Shown here: positions 330 through 15,171 of the stretch, piece by piece | Layout: every line of letters starts with the position of its first letter | Numbering within the stretch: the first letter of the stretch is position 1 | Source: a virus | Taxonomy: Duplodnaviria > Caudoviricetes | Strand: one strand, 5' to 3' | IMG/VR virus record: IMGVR_UViG_3300005805_000350 | Location: 1-28,443 of that record | Length of the DNA stretch: 28,443 nucleotides | Made by a program: the position numbers and the translations under genes | The notes under the pieces: model-generated | The model's input: the letters and a program-made list of their open reading frames with translations, nothing else | What the model was told of the DNA's origin: nothing | The model's database searches: none

Positions 330-336
330 TTAATAT

Positions 337-432
337 CATAATGAAACATACTGCCCAATCAGTCACAAGTGTAAGTTGGTCCCTTGCGGGTGTCCTTGAA
401 TGGTGGGTGTCGAACCCACATGTTTCATTATG
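337..432 (-). ncRNA. Terminal-stem RNA family member A (contains a T arm)
   Basis: 13-bp inverted repeat CATAATGAAACAT (337-349 / 420-432) enclosing GTGGG TTCGACA CCCAC and CCC-GCAA-GGG. Confidence 0.55.
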
Positions 433-2626: not shown

Positions 2627-2642
2627 CACTTTTTGAATAAAC

Positions 2643-2757
2643 AGGATGCATTCTCTTTGGGCGGCTGTCCTACCATTAGACTAAAGTCCTTGCGGACCTG
2701 TGGGAATCGAACCCACACTCGCTGCTTTTGGCAAGAAATATTTGCTGTAAGCATCCT
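2643..2757 (-). ncRNA. YrlA-like circularly permuted tRNA mimic, CAGCAA family
   Basis: AGGATGC/GCATCCT stem, TTACAGCAA, GTGGG TTCGATT CCCAC, AGGTCC-GCAA-GGACTT, TA GTCT AATGGTA GGAC. Confidence 0.8.
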
Positions 2758-2762
2758 AAAAC

Positions 2763-2835
2763 TGGTTGCGGTCGCCGGAGATGATCACGGTCCTTTAGGT
2801 TATGAGCCTAACGTGCGCCACTACACTACCCCGCA
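2763..2835 (-). tRNA. tRNA-Met(CAT), fMet-like, atypical or possibly degenerate
   Basis: TTAGG-CTCATAA-CCTAA; end CCGCAACCA; T-loop ATCATCT; mismatches in acceptor and T stems. Confidence 0.7.
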
Positions 2836-2844
2836 TTTGAAACT

Positions 2845-2920
2845 TGGTGGAGGATAACGGGATCGAACCGTTGACCTATAGCTTGCAAAGCTACCGCTCT
2901 CCCAGCTGAGCTAATCCCCC
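2845..2920 (-). tRNA. tRNA-Ala(TGC)
   Basis: GGGGGAT/ATCCTCC with G3:U70; loop TTTGCAA. Confidence 0.97.
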
Positions 2921-2928
2921 AAATCTTT

Positions 2929-3003
2929 TGGTGCCACGTGTCTGGATCGAACAGACGACCTATCGCTTACAAGGCGATTGCACTACCACTGTGCTAACAT
3001 GGC
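2929..3003 (-). tRNA. tRNA-Thr(TGT)
   Basis: ATCGC-CTTGTAA-GCGAT; ACCA. Confidence 0.95.
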
Positions 3004-3124
3004 ATATCCTTTACAGCGAGGGCAATTTCCGGAAAACTGCGCGGCTCACTGTTTCGTCCTCTAAAATATAACAAGGAGTTTACAACAATGTCAGGGGAGG
3101 ACTCTTCAGAAGGTACCCTGCATC
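3004..3124 (-). ncRNA. Type I hammerhead ribozyme
   Basis: CCTT-CTGAAGA-GTCCTC..GAGGAC-GAAA-CAGTGAG..CTCGCTG-TA-AAGG; complete catalytic core, GUA cleavage triplet at 3014-3012. Confidence 0.85.
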
Positions 3125-3133
3125 ACGTTTACT

Positions 3134-3162
3134 ACTATATAGTATTCCTTATTTCATGTCAA
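3134..3162 (-). promoter_or_regulatory. sigma70-type promoter
   Basis: TTGACA-17 nt-TATAGT, just upstream of the hammerhead. Confidence 0.75.
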
Positions 3163-3582
3163 CTATTTTTCATAACTCCAACCTAACTGTTGCATCAATT
3201 TCTTTTTAACACGTAAGTTAGGATTACGGAAGATACCAGGATCATCAAACCCTAACATTACAGCCACTTCAGTTACTGCACCGCTGCGACAGATGCCCGC
3301 TGTGCAATGTACCACAACATTCATTTGGTTGTGTTTTGCATGTTGCAGTAACTTCACTAACTCTGCGGCTTGTTGTTCAGTGATGCCATGTTCCTCAGCA
3401 CCCTCGTCCTTATCTTCAATATCAAGAAATTGAAAACGATGCACTTCGCAAAACTCTCTTTGAGTTTCAGGCCACCAGGGGCTCACCGTATCCGCTATTT
3501 GAATCAGCATGCTGTTAGCACCAGGATCTGGAAAATTGTTCTGTGCGACATCTATGGCCGCTACGTTTCTAATCCACATCAT
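3163..3582 (-). CDS. Cys-based (PTP/dual-specificity-like) phosphatase
   Basis: HCTAGICRS = HCx5R catalytic loop. Confidence 0.8.
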   Translation of the reverse strand: MMWIRNVAAIDVAQNNFPDPGANSMLIQIADTVSPWWPETQREFCEVHRFQFLDIEDKDEGAEEHGITEQQAAELVKLLQHAKHNQMNVVVHCTAGICRSGAVTEVAVMLGFDDPGIFRNPNLRVKKKLMQQLGWSYEK

Positions 3583-3985: not shown

Positions 3986-4059
3986 TGGCTCCGGTGGACA
4001 GAATCGAACTGCCATCAAAAGTTTTGGAGACTTCTGTCTTACCATTAGACTACACCGGA
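3986..4059 (-). tRNA. tRNA-Trp(CCA)
   Basis: GAAGT-CTCCAAA-ACTTT; G73. Confidence 0.93.
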
Positions 4060-4670
4060 ATTATTTTTTTTACGCCACCTAAAACCCATCCTTGTGTTAA
4101 TAAATTTTGTATATCTTCAGGATGCGCCCATTTAGCCGTGATACCATTATTGATTAGTTTTTTATTTTTTTGTGTCAAAGATAGTTTTTGTTTTTGTTCA
4201 GCTGAAATAGTTTTTCCTAAATTGATCTGTCTGACATGTTTTTTGAATGTCTCTGGATCTTTTTTGGCCCAATTATTCGACGCTAATTTTTTCCTTGTTT
4301 CTTCGGTTGTCACCTGCTTCAATGCAGACTGACGTATCTTTTCTTTGGTTTCTTCAGAATGCTTTCTACCAGCAAATGCACCTATAATACCAGGATTTCC
4401 ACCAGATCCGCCAGGCTTTATATTATATGTATTTGCTGTTGTTATAAAATCTTCAGTAACTATCTCTGCTTCTTTAGCAAACATGTCTTTTTTATTAGTA
4501 AAGACAAATAGAATTTCTTTCTTGAAATTCTCAATTCCGTATTTTACTATAGCTCTTTTAAGATATTTTCCCGATCCCATGTAACCATCATTTATGTCTT
4601 TGGTTGCATGAGCACCTATATAAACTTTATTATCTAATAAATTTGTTATTTTGTAAATAAGATAGAACAT
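4050..4670 (-). CDS. GIY-YIG homing endonuclease (Seg-like) with NUMOD3 motifs
   Basis: [45 protein letters not shown]; stop codon lies within the tRNA-Trp 5' end. Confidence 0.9.
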
Positions 4671-7555: not shown

Positions 7556-7636
7556 CCATAATGGAACATACTCCACACTCTTATACGCCCGCGCTTTGTA
7601 AGCCGTTAAAATATAAGCGAATATATTCTAGTATGG
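7556..7636 (-). ncRNA. Terminal-stem RNA family member D
   Basis: Minus arms CCATACTAGAATATATT ... AGTATGTTCCATTATGG; starts at the tRNA-Glu CCA. Confidence 0.55.
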
Positions 7637-7724: not shown

Positions 7725-8294
7725 TTACACCAGCAGCTTCTTAACGCGACTATGCTTAGGCAAGAAATCCTTAAGGAACATCATTTGATCTGCCAAAATA
7801 TTTCTATTTTGTAAAACCAATGCTTCAGCCTTGTCTGGAACATAAGGAACATACAACAATTCTAAACCAGCTTCCTTAAGTGTCATGTCATCTTTGTGAG
7901 AATTGCATGGCGTGCATGCAGTTACACAATTTGTCCACGACGTTGGACCACCCTTGCTAGCAGGAACAATATGATCCCTAGTCAATTGATGATCTTTAAA
8001 TTCTTTGCCACAGTATGCACAAATATGCAGATCTCGCCTAAACAAGTTTCGGTTGTTCAGCGTAGGCGTCCGATTCACATATTTGAATTTGGAATTTAGA
8101 GCTACAATGCTGGCAACTTCAACTTGAGAGCGCTGACCTGTCATGCGTGAAGTGCCACCCTTAAACATAAATTCCTCATCGCCAAATTCCCAGCCAATGA
8201 GACCTTTGCATTTTAGAGTAACCGCATCCTGCCAGGTGATCCAATTGTGCGGCTGACCACCACTGTTTAATGCCAGTATCAAGTTACGCATCAT
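7725..8294 (-). CDS. McrA-like HNH endonuclease
   Basis: RDLHICAYCG, LTRDHIVPASKGG, WTNCVTACTPCNSHK; GGAG SD before ATG 8294. Confidence 0.88.
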   Translation of the reverse strand: MMRNLILALNSGGQPHNWITWQDAVTLKCKGLIGWEFGDEEFMFKGGTSRMTGQRSQVEVASIVALNSKFKYVNRTPTLNNRNLFRRDLHICAYCGKEFKDHQLTRDHIVPASKGGPTSWTNCVTACTPCNSHKDDMTLKEAGLELLYVPYVPDKAEALVLQNRNILADQMMFLKDFLPKHSRVKKLLV

Positions 8295-8342
8295 GCTCTC
8301 CAATTAAAAATTTTACTTTTAGATATTTACTACAAATAAAAC

Positions 8343-8436
8343 TGGTACTCCCGGAAGGAATCGAACCTTCACCATGCCCTCATCTAGAGCTAAACCGGAA
8401 TATAAAGCCGGCGTTCTACCATTAAACTACGGGAGC
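8343..8436 (-). tRNA. tRNA with TAT anticodon (Ile-UAU) and long variable arm
   Basis: CCGGC-TTTATAT-TCCGG; variable arm GCTCT-AGATG-AGGGC; A73 CCA; 94 nt. Confidence 0.8.
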
Positions 8437-8447
8437 ATAAAATAAAC

Positions 8448-8503
8448 AGGATGGACTTTTTCACTTTTTGACAGTAAGTTTTTTAATTTGCTGTAACCAT
8501 CCT
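8448..8503 (-). ncRNA. Short CAGCAA-family RNA with Asp-like anticodon hairpin
   Basis: AGGATGG/CCATCCT stem, TTACAGCAA, ACTT-A-CTGTCAA-A-AAGT. Confidence 0.65.
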
Positions 8504-8511
8504 CAAAACTT

Positions 8512-8861: not shown

Positions 8862-9251
8862 TTATCTTAACGAAAGACCTCTCGCCTTTCGACCGTTACC
8901 CTTATTACCACCGCCATAACTTTTAGTTTGGCTATGACAATTAGGACATATTAATCTTAAATTGCTTGGCATATTATTGCCAGCATTTCCGTCTATGTGA
9001 TCTACTTGAAGTACAATAGGTTTATTATTGTATTCGCTTATTCCGCAACATTCACAATTATAACCATTTACTTCAGTTAATACTTTACGCAAAGTGTTTC
9101 TTTCGGTTACTTCACCAAGTTTAAATCTTTCAATTGTTCCTTTAAATTGTGCTTTACCCTGACAAGAGTTGCTACAGTATATATTAAACTTTTGACGTGA
9201 CCACTTAGACTCAGTTCCGCAATTTTTACAGATATAGGTAGAATGTTTCAT
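8862..9251 (-). CDS. HNH homing endonuclease with N-terminal Zn ribbon (start ATG 9251)
   Basis: CKNCG..YCSNSC; CECCG..LQVDHIDGN..NLRLICPNCHSQT; GATAAATA just upstream. Confidence 0.88.
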   Translation of the reverse strand: MKHSTYICKNCGTESKWSRQKFNIYCSNSCQGKAQFKGTIERFKLGEVTERNTLRKVLTEVNGYNCECCGISEYNNKPIVLQVDHIDGNAGNNMPSNLRLICPNCHSQTKSYGGGNKGNGRKARGLSLR

Positions 9252-9279
9252 ACATTTATTTATCATTCTACCGCACAAA

Positions 9280-9302
9280 TCTACCAACTGAGCTACACCC
9301 GC
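9280..9302 (-). pseudogene. Orphan canonical 5' fragment of tRNA-Gly
   Basis: GCGGGTGTAGCTCAGTTGGTAGA, then abrupt loss of tRNA similarity. Confidence 0.75.
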
Positions 9303-10182: not shown

Positions 10183-11727
10183 TTATCTGCGAGCTCTTGT
10201 TTTGGGCTGGCCCGCAGCAGGCTCACTACGTCTAGCACGTAATTTTTCAACTGAATGGGTTTTTGGTTTGATGTCTACTTTGGCTTTCTGTACAGTCTGA
10301 GCTAGATCACTGTCAGTTTCATCCGGTACATCTTTGGCCCCACCACGAAGAATCTTAAAGGTAAAATTGCCTTTTATACCAGTGCTGTAATAAGTTTTAC
10401 CAGCACTAAATTTGACCCCAGTTACACTTTTGCTGGGCCACTGTGCGGTAAACTTGTCCAATATCCATTCGCTGCCTTTATCTTTGGCTTTGGTATAAAC
10501 CTGTATTAATGCTCCGTTGTTCAACAAACCGCTAGCTACTTCACTAAAGTCTGTATTTTCATTTATATGCTCAGCTACTTTATGTGCCACTGCTGCTAGG
10601 CTGTGAAAATATAAATTTACACTATTAGGGTTGTCTGTGGGCTTATTTTCAATGAGATTCTTTAAATTCTTGCTGATTTTCATGCCTTGTACTTGCTCTA
10701 ATTTAACTAGCGGCTGTTTATACATAGCAATGATGTCTGCTTCATCCTTTTCATTGATGATACCAAACTGTTTACCCAATACCAAAGGTGCATTACGTTG
10801 ACCCATTTTGACCACAGTTTCAACTATTTTTAATACTTCTTGTTGTTTTTTTCCGCTTATATTTTTAGCTTCCCTACTGAGATCCAACAGGTTCTTTGCG
10901 CTGGCTTGTGCTCCTGCGGCTGCTTTGCTACTTACTTTAATTGTAGAACCACTGCGACTAGTTATAATACTGTCGCTTAGACCTTCAGTTTTATCTGTAC
11001 CAAAACTAATTAGGGTTTTCTTAAATCCAGTTTGCCCCATGAATACTGTGGCAGCTTCTTCAGCATTACCTTCCGCAGTGCCAGCTAAGAGACTGATAGG
11101 ATGTAATAATTCACAAAAATAGTTAGTAAATGCACTGAAACTTATGTCTTTGGGAGCAGGTATAGTTATTGGGAATGGACTTCCAGCAGCTATCATCTGT
11201 GCTACCTTAGTTAAAGGACTAGCAGGCCCAAACTTTTCAGATATCTGATTTACAATATCTTTGGGTGTTAAATCACTGGCTTTGGTCAAAATATCCTGGG
11301 GCATTAATCCAGCCTGACTCTTAGCAGCTACCCTACTGTTATATCTATACCCTGGGATACCTGTTTGGTTATCCCATAAATTCTGTGTGGGATCTGGGTT
11401 TACACTTTGGAATGGTTTAATGAAGATTAATTTTTGTCTATCAGGGGTGGAAAAAGTAGCCACACCAAAAGCTAGATCATTGCTTTTAAATTTGCCTACG
11501 ACATTTACTGTAGCGTTACCAAAGCTTTTGCTTATTTTTTGTAGAGCTGAAGCGGTAGCTTCTGGGCTGGCAAAGGTTTGCGCATTATCTGGATAAAATT
11601 CCACTGAATCCACGTAAATTTTGTCATCAGCGTTAGTGGTACTAACGAATTCTTCCCCAGGTTTCCTAGCACCTAATCCACGACTTTCCACTAGCCTATT
11701 ATCAATTATGTTTAGAAGATCCCTCAT
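10183..11727 (-). CDS. Hypothetical protein (514 aa), possibly virion-internal
   Basis: Long ORF; MRDLLNII..LVE N-terminus; weak D..IKVSSK PD-(D/E)xK-like segment. Confidence 0.8.
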   Translation of the reverse strand: MRDLLNIIDNRLVESRGLGARKPGEEFVSTTNADDKIYVDSVEFYPDNAQTFASPEATASALQKISKSFGNATVNVVGKFKSNDLAFGVATFSTPDRQKLIFIKPFQSVNPDPTQNLWDNQTGIPGYRYNSRVAAKSQAGLMPQDILTKASDLTPKDIVNQISEKFGPASPLTKVAQMIAAGSPFPITIPAPKDISFSAFTNYFCELLHPISLLAGTAEGNAEEAATVFMGQTGFKKTLISFGTDKTEGLSDSIITSRSGSTIKVSSKAAAGAQASAKNLLDLSREAKNISGKKQQEVLKIVETVVKMGQRNAPLVLGKQFGIINEKDEADIIAMYKQPLVKLEQVQGMKISKNLKNLIENKPTDNPNSVNLYFHSLAAVAHKVAEHINENTDFSEVASGLLNNGALIQVYTKAKDKGSEWILDKFTAQWPSKSVTGVKFSAGKTYYSTGIKGNFTFKILRGGAKDVPDETDSDLAQTVQKAKVDIKPKTHSVEKLRARRSEPAAGQPKTRARR

Positions 11728-11995: not shown

Positions 11996-12766
11996 TTACT
12001 TACGTTCTATATCTTCTTCAATACATGCATTTCCGTATTGAATTTCGATTACTTTAAGCGGAATGTCAGTGGTATTACACAGTTGATGCCACTGCATTTT
12101 GTCAATATGAATGTGGTCAAATTGTTCAAATCTTCCCAATAATTCCATATCAGTGCTACGATTTATACTATAAACATCAGCAGTGCCTTCAGCTACGAAC
12201 CAATGCTCTGAACGATCTTTATGCCGTTGCATACTAAGACGTTGCCCTGGTTGAACTGTAAGTTCTTTGACTTTTACATTGTTGTTAGGTTCGTGCAATA
12301 CACGATAATATCCCCAGTTTCTATCAGTTTTAGGTGATTTCCATTCTTCTAAAATCCAGCTAGAGCTATTGGCCTTATCTTCCCCACCAATACCAAACAC
12401 AAACTCTACATCGTCAAATACCATTTCAGGTATATTTTGTTTGGTGCGATCTCCGCCATTTGCAAATACAATTTGACAATTTGGGTATAGTTCCTTGCAT
12501 TTACGTATTGCATCTATGCTGCTGCCATCACTATCATCATAGTCAATAATGGTATCATCCACCATATAAAGGTTTTGTATGATATTCATACGTTCTAATA
12601 CAGGCATAAAAGGCCTACCTTTTTTACGGGTAAGCCAAGCATCTGAATTCACAGCAACCACTAATTTTTCACCTAATTTCTTAGCGGATTCAAATAATTT
12701 TATGTGTCCGCTGTGTACTGGATCAAAGCCACCAGAAACCAAAACAACTCTTTGAATTTTTTTCAT
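11996..12766 (-). CDS. Cytidylyltransferase-like domain fused to type II mannose-6-phosphate isomerase cupin
   Basis: SGGFDPVHSGH (HxGH), FANGGDR, WGYY..LSMQRHKDRSEHW..IEIQYG..EEDIER; start ATG 12766 overlaps upstream stop. Confidence 0.88.
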   Translation of the reverse strand: MKKIQRVVLVSGGFDPVHSGHIKLFESAKKLGEKLVVAVNSDAWLTRKKGRPFMPVLERMNIIQNLYMVDDTIIDYDDSDGSSIDAIRKCKELYPNCQIVFANGGDRTKQNIPEMVFDDVEFVFGIGGEDKANSSSWILEEWKSPKTDRNWGYYRVLHEPNNNVKVKELTVQPGQRLSMQRHKDRSEHWFVAEGTADVYSINRSTDMELLGRFEQFDHIHIDKMQWHQLCNTTDIPLKVIEIQYGNACIEEDIERK

Positions 12767-13215
12767 AATGTTATATCCTCCATACCTGCCACACGGAGCC
12801 TTGTGATATTGTTTAATGAAAAGCCTTTGCCTTCTAAACCTTTCATAAGTCCCAACCATTTATTGCGCAACAATGCTACTTCGTTGATTAGTGTTTCATA
12901 ATCAACGACCTCATCCTCGCCATCAACATATTTTTCAGCATCTCTTGCTGTTAGAGCTCGTGCATAGGTCTCTAAGTATTTCTTAAAGTGATTTCTACGT
13001 ATTCTACGTAGTTGAATGTTCATATAATTTAAAACAGCTTCAATTTCTTGAAGCTGATTAAATCTATGTTCAGTAACGCCAGGAAGGTCAGCTATGTTTT
13101 TTTCAAAGTGACCTTTTATTCCACATTCTTTTCTAGCTTGCGCTAGTTCACCTTCGTAATATGCAATAAAATCTGGCAAATTACCTATGTCTTGAACTAC
13201 TTTGCTGTACCACAT
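12763..13215 (-). CDS. uvsY: UvsY-like recombination mediator
   Basis: 150-aa helical protein, KYVDGEDEV..KGF pattern, next to uvsX. Confidence 0.7.
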   Translation of the reverse strand: MWYSKVVQDIGNLPDFIAYYEGELAQARKECGIKGHFEKNIADLPGVTEHRFNQLQEIEAVLNYMNIQLRRIRRNHFKKYLETYARALTARDAEKYVDGEDEVVDYETLINEVALLRNKWLGLMKGLEGKGFSLNNITRLRVAGMEDITL

Positions 13216-13456: not shown

Positions 13457-14518
13457 TTATCCTTTATCTTGCTCAGCGGGTTCAACAATTTTCCTATGTG
13501 GATTCTTTTGAAAATCTTCCATAACCTTGTCCAAAGAATTATCCTCATTACGTTCCCACGCTTTGCGGAATTGTTTGATTGTTGTTCCATCTGACAAAGT
13601 GTATTTAAGACTATTACCTTCTTTTGTTAATAATCCTTTGGCTTCCATCATATCAACTAAACCACTATAAGGATTCATCCCCTGCTCATAAGGAATCTTA
13701 ATTTGAACATTTTCAAAAGGCTTAGCATAACGAGTTTTCATAATCTTGCAGGCTGCTCGAATTCCACGAACTTCTGAAATCTTATTACCTTCTTCATCTT
13801 CCTTAAGTTTTAGCTTTTTCATAGCTACCACAATACTGCTGGCATAGATAAAGCCCTGCCCACCACTGATTTTGTCATCGGGATCAAACATGTCTTGGCT
13901 AGCATAGGTATGATTTGTAGCAACCAAACCTAAATTTAAACTACCAAACATGTTTACGCAATTGCGAACCAATGCTGTCAGTGCTTTGGGTTTACGCCCC
14001 ATATCACCCTTCATGTCACCAGCTTCAAATTGGTTTACATCAGTGGGTGTCAACATCATACCCAAACTGTCCAATACAAACAAAACTTTGGGTCTGTCTG
14101 CTTCTGGCAGTGTTTTATATTCTTTGACAAACTCTGAAATCATTTTAGCTACATCATCAATCATAGCCATATTGAGTTTTAGAAGTTTATCTTCGCTGGT
14201 GTCCACGCCTAATGCATGTAACCAAGCTTCATCCAATGCATTTTCTGTATCAATTAGAATACAGTAGATACCCTGTTCTTGTGCATGACGAATTAGATTA
14301 CCGGAACAAATAAAGCTTTTGCCGGCACCAGATTCACCAGCAAACACAGTAACTTTGCCCAAAGGTACACCTTTTTTAAAGTCACCGCTAATCAAATAAT
14401 TTAATGTATAATTGCCTGTGCTGATCCAATCTGTTGGATCTGTAAAACCAACACTGATACCATCAATGCTTTTGGTTATACTTTTACGAAATTTAGAGAT
14501 ATCAAACGGCCTGTTCAT
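13457..14518 (-). CDS. uvsX: RecA/UvsX-like recombinase
   Basis: Walker A GESGAGKS, IDTENA, LDSLG, NHTY, SGGQG. Confidence 0.93.
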   Translation of the reverse strand: MNRPFDISKFRKSITKSIDGISVGFTDPTDWISTGNYTLNYLISGDFKKGVPLGKVTVFAGESGAGKSFICSGNLIRHAQEQGIYCILIDTENALDEAWLHALGVDTSEDKLLKLNMAMIDDVAKMISEFVKEYKTLPEADRPKVLFVLDSLGMMLTPTDVNQFEAGDMKGDMGRKPKALTALVRNCVNMFGSLNLGLVATNHTYASQDMFDPDDKISGGQGFIYASSIVVAMKKLKLKEDEEGNKISEVRGIRAACKIMKTRYAKPFENVQIKIPYEQGMNPYSGLVDMMEAKGLLTKEGNSLKYTLSDGTTIKQFRKAWERNEDNSLDKVMEDFQKNPHRKIVEPAEQDKG

Positions 14519-15171
14519 GTTTTCTTTCCTTTTCTGTTAAGTTGTGCTAATCTTCTTGCTTCTGACCATGGCTTTCCCTTACAGCCACCCCATCGCTTCT
14601 TACGGTCTTCGGCTGTCATAGTTAGTAACTGAGTCTTTTGTATTTCACTTATACGTTTCTTTATTTCATCAGAGTGGTGATAATTTCTTTGTGCCTGAGA
14701 TACTTTCATTTTAGCCTTCGTCTCTTCTGTATGCTTTAGACCCAGGTGCCCATTTGAATTAAACTTTCCCTTTTTCGTTTGTTGCATTTTTTTAATTCTT
14801 AGAGCCTTTGATTCTGCGGTTTCACTATAAGTTGTTAAAACTACAGAACCAGTGTCGGGGTCTACATATCGGCGATTTAACCGTAACGAATTTCCTTTAT
14901 TTTCTCTTATGCACAGTTGCTCATACCAGAAACAAACTTCATACTCTGTATGTCTAAATAAGATCTTAACATCAAACGAATCCTTGCCGTATAGACCTAT
15001 TAACTCCTTCACTCTCTTTGACGACGTATAATAATGAATCCACAAATCCTTTTCGGGTGCTCGTTTCAACCTGACATTCGCCGCCCTAGAACCATAATAA
15101 AACTGACCTGTTACTCTATTTTTGATAAGATAAACATATGACTGATGCATAACTTTTCCAATAAGTTGCAT
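14515..15171 (-). CDS. GIY-YIG-type homing endonuclease with NUMOD3 motifs
   Basis: YVYLIKNRVTGQFYYGSR, YYTSS..YGKDSF, GLKHTEETKAKM. Confidence 0.82.
   Translation of the reverse strand: MQLIGKVMHQSYVYLIKNRVTGQFYYGSRAANVRLKRAPEKDLWIHYYTSSKRVKELIGLYGKDSFDVKILFRHTEYEVCFWYEQLCIRENKGNSLRLNRRYVDPDTGSVVLTTYSETAESKALRIKKMQQTKKGKFNSNGHLGLKHTEETKAKMKVSQAQRNYHHSDEIKKRISEIQKTQLLTMTAEDRKKRWGGCKGKPWSEARRLAQLNRKGKKT

Follow-up and report, generated by a model that had tools for sequence, protein, structure and literature searches.

The window analysed here is the whole of a 28.4-kb virus record, ~8% complete, and since it encodes a terminase, a gp32-like SSB, UvsX, UvsY, and head and tail proteins, it can be attributed to a large T4-like phage. 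Its first 10 kb carry a minus-strand array of ~25 tRNA genes (21 with default ARAGORN settings, 25 with a relaxed setting). In this array tRNA-Thr(UGU) (2929..3003, minus strand; 67.8 bits, CCA encoded) heads a Thr-Ala-Met run, with tRNA-Ala(UGC) and tRNA-Met(CAU) (2763..2920, minus strand) following after spacers of 8 and 9 nt, likely in the same transcript. Between tRNA-Thr and a promoter-like site lies a complete type I hammerhead ribozyme motif (minus strand, 3123-3004). At least half of the words sampled from the region were present in seven runs of two studies (lake/freshwater metagenomes), the best of which may come from the source sample, and only 5-6% of them in the RNA runs; runs with a small share of the words were excluded as evidence, X10 and X12 having no coverage of the ribozyme. 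Contigs from two runs of one study span 3002-3400 with six differences, and the four that are listed fall outside the ribozyme. Four homing-endonuclease-like ORFs (two GIY-YIG, two HNH; 4050-4670, 7725-8303, 8862-9287 and 14515-15171, minus strand) are also present, three of them within the tRNA array, where they could help array segments to move. A 514-aa ORF without a Pfam or PHROG match (10183-11727, minus strand) lies just upstream of the array, and the tRNA called Ile(UAU) (8343-8436, minus strand) is unusually long (94 nt), as are the Ile(UAU) genes of the related contigs L452, L459 and L059.

Read 5' to 3' on the minus strand, the motif begins with the strand AUG-CAGGG (3116..3123), whose predicted pseudoknot partner is the start of loop II (duplex -11.9 kcal/mol), followed by the 5' strand of stem I, UACCUU (3110..3115; 4 bp formed by CCUU 3113-3110, plus a conserved UAC), as delimited by the motif script and the homologue alignment. 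The catalytic core C3-A9, CUGAAGA (3103..3109; CUGANGA in 5/5 members of the family described below), leads into a 6-bp stem II (3056..3102 including its loop; GUCCUC 3102-3097 with GAGGAC 3061-3056), in which the G10.1-C11.1 pair is intact and which carries a 35-nt loop II (3096-3062) with the pseudoknot partner (3096-3088) and a UCCUU tract (3077-3073). The core segment G12-A15.1, GAAA (3052..3055), is followed by a 7-bp stem III (CAGUGAG 3051-3045 with CUCGCUG 3020-3014; pairing probability 0.88-1.00), whose extension (within 3014..3051) comprises an internal loop that is asymmetric and conserved (YCGC over C), a helix of 2 bp, and a hairpin at the apex with a palindrome in its loop region (UCCGGA in the window and in L452, UCUAGA in the other three members). 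The motif ends with the GUA triplet (3014-3012; GUA in 5/5 members) and the 3' strand of stem I, AAGG (3011-3008). A hammerhead cuts directly 3' of H17, and by the hammerhead consensus the cut is predicted between 3012 and 3011, so that 3004..3011 doubles as the 8-nt leader AAGGAUAU of the tRNA. The assignment to type I follows from the 4-bp stem I, which is open at its ends. Set against the consensus for this type, the motif has the core C3UGANGA9, G12AAA15 and U16.1 H17, three stems around the core with stem I open, a G10.1-C11.1 pair, covariation in all three stems, and, as the predicted pseudoknot, a tertiary contact between stem I and loop II that is weak for the window and L452 taken alone.

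The sigma70-type promoter-like site TTGACA-17-TATAGT (3134..3162, minus strand) has 11/12 consensus matches, with transcription predicted to start near 3127, and ends 24 nt before the ribozyme core; likewise, TTGACA-17-TATAAT stands 25 nt before the core in three of the four homologues. The fourth, L452, lacks an adjoining promoter; its ribozyme is preceded by, and fused to, another structured RNA. Hammerhead-free tRNAs elsewhere start 8-44 nt behind strong promoters. The stop codon of a dual-specificity-phosphatase-like ORF (HCxAGxxRS motif; 3163-3582, minus strand) adjoins the -35 box of the ribozyme promoter, with no terminator listed between the two; no relatives of this ORF were found in the viral contigs. 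On the opposite strand, a 32-codon ORF (3088-3186, plus strand) with an AAGGAG upstream and a hydrophobic C-terminal half overlaps both ribozyme and promoter; this antisense ORF with its Shine-Dalgarno-like site was considered as the reason for loop II and rejected, three homologues having no equivalent start. An earlier note, made from the letters of the window, had described a hammerhead with a full core and stems I-III, cleavage between 3012 and 3011, an 8-nt leader on tRNA-Thr(UGU), which starts at 3003, and a sigma70 promoter just upstream, and the present analysis agrees with it on each of these, the cut itself being a prediction.

The motif is the sole hammerhead match on either strand of the window (stems of 4/6/7 bp; script covering all three topologies). 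Among 300 dinucleotide shuffles, 13 gave any 3/3/3-bp match, three a 4/4/3 match, and none a match of 4/6/3 or better. The Rfam hammerhead models nevertheless gave no match in the window, and the homologue L459 reached 22.7 bits on Hammerhead_3, below the cut-off of 48.5; this is likely a limit of the models, explained by the long insertions, and not a criterion for the class. Simple folding of the motif is no better than that of shuffles (z -0.8), since in the resulting structure loop II takes up the 5' tail and stems I and II are missing; the program cannot hold a pseudoknot. In the window, nested folding favours the pseudoknot helix over stems I and II by 6.5 kcal/mol (the program being unable to hold both). 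Stem I itself is weak (-2.8 kcal/mol). The lack of an Rfam hammerhead match, a stem I of only 4 bp, and a minimum-energy nested fold without stems I and II could together be taken to mean that the window copy is a chance match or is inactive, i.e. misfolded by its enlarged loop II or by the competing UCCUU tract. This seems very improbable, however, with a perfect core, no shuffle out of 300 matching the motif, compensatory changes in the window's own stem III, and a score of 100.7 bits on a model of the family (with the window in the training set).

Homologues were found by exact-pattern scans, L452, L459 and L460 being longer versions of L149, L293 and L300. L149 was recovered among 59 loci picked by core and T-loop, many of which were tRNA-Phe genes, whose anticodon arm mimics CUGAAGA; L149, L293 and L300 were recovered among 114 loci picked by core and stem I, where a tRNA was not required; and L341 was obtained from 117 metagenome loci by a scan covering 47 of 64 parts. 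Two more viral scans gave already known contigs only (1 of 26 loci and 3 of 16 loci), a GTDB scan gave no members in 29 loci, and the exact window-specific pattern occurred in none of the viral contigs. With blastn against annotated phages no homologue was found, the matches being tRNAs or short chance matches. ORF 11996-12859, used as bait, yielded 80 loci, of which only L059 has tRNAs, and L059 has no hammerhead. With the family model, neither the window nor three member contigs nor the 80 related loci gave a second copy, and on 70 selected loci the scores, L341 apart, were only weak (<=33 bits). A match of 22.7 bits in the phage genome G004 was rejected as a member, since the core is absent.

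All five members have UACYUU-CUGANGA-GUYCUC, GAGRAC-GAAA, the 7-bp stem III, the YCGC-over-C internal loop, the apical hairpin and GUA-AARGAUA. Their alignment has an invariant core and pairing in 98.9% of 95 cells; among the 19 pairs, two-sided changes occur in 6. Column shuffles attained these pairing and covariation values in 0-1 of 500 cases, and slid controls reached 36-55% pairing. Since there are only five sequences, and three are closely related, the figures lend support but do not amount to a significance test. The phages that carry three of the four homologues are distant from that of the window (terminase 34-36% and UvsX 26-29% identical). The five members make up a small and apparently undescribed hammerhead subfamily, missed by Rfam, which is tied to tRNA 5' ends in unrelated phages.

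The candidate pseudoknot of the window pairs CAGGG 3120-3116 with CCCUG 3096-3092, and AUG 3123-3121 with CAU 3090-3088 across a bulged A. Between members the two strands differ yet stay complementary (CAGGG/CCCUG, UUAGGC/GCCUGA, GUAACAGC/GCUGUUAC and AAUAACAG/CUGUUAUU), and the cognate loop is the best partner for 4/5 tails when identical loops are counted, the exception being the L452 tail, which pairs slightly better with the loop of another member than with its own. Shuffled tails paired as well in 86, 97, 3, 8 and 11 of 2000 cases across the five members, the first value being that of the window, whose pseudoknot is thus borderline by itself and remains a candidate with its support coming mainly from the homologues. 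The earlier suggestion of a pairing between the 5' tail and loop II is strengthened by these data, as a prediction, because complementarity is present in 5/5 members and the partners change together. The same cannot be said of the accompanying idea that the long loop II is special and possibly regulatory: its length is not conserved (35 nt in the window versus 11, 19, 19 and 19 nt in the homologues), and when it was considered as a cis antisense guide no target in the partial contigs beat shuffles. The only recurring parts of loop II are the 5' pseudoknot strand and, in 4/5 members, the UCCUU tract, which is complementary to AAGGA of the leader and which, we assume, resembles the 16S anti-Shine-Dalgarno sequence.

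The predicted cut precedes Thr(UGU) by 8 nt in the window and Lys(UUU) by the same distance in L452; in L459, L460 and L341 it stands 10 nt ahead of Asn(GUU) sequence. tRNA sequence adjoins the ribozyme in 5/5 members and an intact tRNA in 3/5; in L460 and L341 the cut is followed by no more than the 5' half of tRNA-Asn, which in L341 carries a mismatch in its D-stem beside an intact ribozyme. The 5'-side adjacency reported for the window, for which a survey across phages had been proposed, thus recurs in all four homologues, 8-10 nt before tRNA sequence, although a link specific to tRNA-Thr can be dismissed, the neighbours being Thr, Lys and Asn (with only the Asn 5' half in 2/5). In three tRNA-blind scans (two that found members and a third) every member found still adjoins tRNA sequence. 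As a baseline, 409 pattern-picked loci gave 32 distinct hammerhead-like cores, three of which are family cores that adjoin tRNA sequence; none of the other 29 listed has a tRNA within 300 nt downstream, where some may be chance matches and flank lengths varied. De-duplication in this set concealed L043, where a type III hammerhead stands 106 nt upstream of tRNA-Met, and a generic hammerhead pattern (48 loci) likewise found no tRNA nearer than 106 nt. From this baseline, the tight link to tRNAs is a property of the subfamily and not of phage hammerheads generally. The tRNA-Asn gene of L460 (minus strand, ~680-870) and that of L341 are split, the 5' half being followed by an Asn-anticodon cloverleaf with a ~17-bp stem and without CCA, and the final T-arm and CCA end does not pair with the first acceptor strand; the split gene could have arisen by rearrangement or could serve as a tRNA decoy.

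Upstream, the neighbour of the ribozyme varies among members (an ORF, tRNA-Cys or another RNA). The window, L459 and L460 agree in their array order (Ser(GCU), Cys and ribozyme, followed by Thr and Ala) and may therefore represent one transferred block, leaving two or three independent contexts; the window tRNA-Thr and the L459 tRNA-Asn are 73% identical. Such a common order suggests block transfer, and together with the patchy presence of the ribozyme among relatives it would fit a generic promoter-proximal hammerhead without a role tied to tRNAs, which entered tRNA arrays once, then moved with array segments, and which insulates or punctuates transcripts, including read-through from the phosphatase gene. 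Hammerheads are indeed common between phage genes (PMC3088659), and in the window the stop codon at the -35 box, with no terminator listed there, would permit such read-through. We nevertheless regard this explanation as improbable: 0/5 members precede a protein gene, the tight spacing has survived a change of neighbour and array order in L452, and the upstream context differs among members.

The reading that we prefer, tentatively and at slightly less than even chances, is that the tRNA-array hammerhead cuts itself off the front of the transcript and so leaves a 5'-OH pre-tRNA with an 8-nt leader for the host RNase P. Transcription would start near 3127, the ribozyme would fold with its pseudoknot and self-cleave at 3012/3011, the weak stem I would let go after the cut so that the leader becomes single-stranded, and RNase P would remove the leader by cutting at 3003. 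The cut would also swap the 5'-triphosphate for a 5'-OH, the end that hammerhead cleavage chemistry gives (PMC6765202). With the leader tied up in stem I until cleavage, cleavage would gate the maturation of the first tRNA. Most bases of the leader are predicted to be unpaired after the cut, and its length fits the median tRNA-tRNA spacer of 7 nt in the member arrays (n=26). It also matches the footprint of the RNase P protein, given as N(-8) to N(-3) (PMC5602109). In fact, the proposed step resembles the pre-cleavage of polycistronic tRNA transcripts of E. coli by RNase E, which leaves 4-8-nt leaders for RNase P (8 nt in the case of hisR), whereas RNase E is a host protein nuclease (PMC7049720) and the hammerhead a cis-acting RNA that gives a 5'-OH end.

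Several observations speak against dedicated tRNA processing. There is one ribozyme copy per contig, in arrays of up to ~25-29 tRNAs; other promoter-first tRNAs are free of ribozymes; an intact ribozyme stands beside a broken tRNA-Asn in L460 and L341; the 8 nt of the leader are accounted for by the ribozyme's own stem I strand and are close to the ordinary spacer of the arrays; and RNase P accepts E. coli leaders of 2 to 52 nt (PMC7049720). In G004, a close relative of the window's phage (338 kb, 97% complete, UvsX 84% identical), the orthologous Thr(UGU) gene (84% identical) lies behind a promoter-like site with another folded element and no hammerhead. The ribozyme is, then, an optional and mobile accessory and not a general need of the array. 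The element in this G004 slot, between the promoter-like site and tRNA-Thr(UGU) (L059, 19075-19179, plus strand), is a folded RNA closed by UGGCUG/CAGCCA (z -1.68).

The main alternative, possible if on balance rather unlikely, is that the ribozyme is active but that selection acts on what it releases, a ~110-nt 5' fragment of its own with a self-cut 3' end (2',3'-cyclic phosphate). The motif would then be one of many non-coding modules of the array, each trailed by a short spacer and a tRNA, hence the adjacency. Parts without a catalytic role are conserved (the YCGC/C internal loop of stem III, a two-sided change from GC/GC to GG/CC, the UCCGGA/UCUAGA palindrome, and UCCUU in 4/5), and in 4/5 members the promoter starts the RNA just before the pseudoknot strand, so that the cut removes the ribozyme only. 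That the ribozyme outlasts a broken neighbouring tRNA, and that in G004 this slot is occupied by a different folded RNA, also point in this direction. On the other hand, the L452 ribozyme is fused to an upstream RNA and has no adjoining promoter, loop II ranges in length between 11 and 35 nt, the partial contigs yielded no antisense target better than shuffles, and the gap between ribozyme and tRNA has no extra spacer. A search of five contigs gave no RtcB or TROVE/Ro60 gene, but four are only fragments, so that this negative carries little weight. If it were true, the fragment would count as a new small RNA of phages, one whose extension is conserved. It does not exclude the self-removal reading.

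The identity of the tRNAs that follow the cut raises one more alternative, namely that the ribozyme stands at the head of a counter-defence cassette and speeds up or gates the supply of phage tRNAs, which would make good the losses to host anticodon nucleases, for instance the PARIS effector AriB. The main AriB targets are given as Thr(UGU), Lys(UUU) and Asn(GUU) (bioRxiv 10.1101/2025.02.04.636281), which are exactly the three tRNAs after the cut; the naive probability of this is 0.001 for AriB-type tRNAs and 0.04 for any U36 tRNA, and the full E. coli site UAAUC|A is absent from all three. Yet the pattern was spotted post hoc with a target set chosen to fit, there are three contexts only, which are not independent (common array order; Thr and Asn 73% identical), and absence of the site is common among tRNAs. 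We consider the alternative doubtful, though it would amount to a ribozyme-controlled counter-defence. An extended version, in which promoter and ribozyme form a mobile head, a 5'-side counterpart of the theta ribozymes, that would hold the leader, respond via the stem III extension or the UCCUU loop, and gate the AriB-target tRNAs (Lys-UUU, Thr-UGU, Asn-GUU), strikes us as no less speculative.

Compared with known ribozymes, the motif resembles the type I pseudoknot hammerheads of bacteria and phages (Perreault et al. 2011, PMC3088659; Rfam clan CL00010) in its consensus core, NUH triplet and open stem I, as well as in its intergenic location in a phage and its pseudoknot; in that paper, a pseudoknot replaces the loop-loop contacts in ~40% of hammerheads. 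Unlike the hammerheads described in its main text, the family of the window has a conserved stem III extension, a long and variable loop II, no Rfam match and a fixed place before a tRNA, and in that main text the word tRNA appears once, in the reference list.

In one respect the motif may work like the theta (HDV-like) ribozymes of gut phages (Kienbeck et al. 2024, PMC10879173), namely as a phage ribozyme that adjoins a tRNA; as there, a self-cleaving RNA stands beside phage tRNAs of varied identity, and for theta a takeover of a tRNA-processing step at the 3' end has been proposed. Its three-way junction differs from the nested double pseudoknot of theta, and it sits on the 5' side with a predicted cut 8-10 nt from the tRNA, so that RNase P would still be needed, whereas theta cuts at most 5 nt from the tRNA 3' end. 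The window phage is from freshwater, while the theta ribozymes described there are mostly from gut phages. A theta identity of the motif itself was rejected: the minimal HDV-like fold with its catalytic C is absent, and the cut is not within 5 nt of a tRNA 3' end. If self-removal from the tRNA transcript is the right reading, phages flank tRNAs with self-cleaving RNAs at either end and employ two unrelated folds to do so.

In the literature searched, which mostly excludes subscription papers, no primary publication was found to describe a natural hammerhead at the 5' ends of phage tRNAs; the supplementary lists of Perreault 2011 could hold members. The introduction of PMC13481778 mentions hammerheads adjacent to phage tRNAs, citing Kienbeck 2024 and a Liu 2024 paper. 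The cited works do not appear to show this, Kienbeck 2024 being without hammerheads (0 occurrences of the word in the main text of PMC10879173) and Liu 2024 being cited elsewhere in PMC13481778 for the HYER ribozyme. According to a 2019 review (PMC6765202), the specific purpose of phage hammerheads is still to be defined. Most of them precede genes of unknown function, which leaves little to measure, whereas a tRNA neighbour at fixed spacing across distant phages offers a direct readout, i.e. the mature tRNA with versus without a core mutation. Whether self-removal or the released 5' fragment is what is selected, a hammerhead subfamily has been missed by Rfam.

The arrays hold further structured elements. 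A repeat motif, CCAUAUUGAA...GUGUUUCAAUAUGG, closes structured RNAs between tRNAs in the window (336-352, 577-593, 668-684 and 7556-7572) and in L149 (868-752, minus strand), and one RNA closed in this way lies directly upstream of the L149 ribozyme. Other hammerheads, of type I and type III, occur in L176 (minus strand) and L162 (plus strand) at 601-730, with tRNA-like elements directly 3' of them that ARAGORN did not call; in the one of L176, the T-arm precedes a D-arm-like hairpin. After tRNA-Met of the window, a Y RNA-like element (2640-2757, minus strand) combines a terminal stem AGGAUGC/GCAUCCU, which has a CAGCAA bulge, with a tRNA-like domain in permuted order, the T-arm preceding the D-arm; its YrlA match is weak (27.8 bits), its fold has a z of -2.37, and this fragment has no TROVE gene. 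A shorter element with the same ends lies at ~8440-8505, before tRNA-Ile(UAU).
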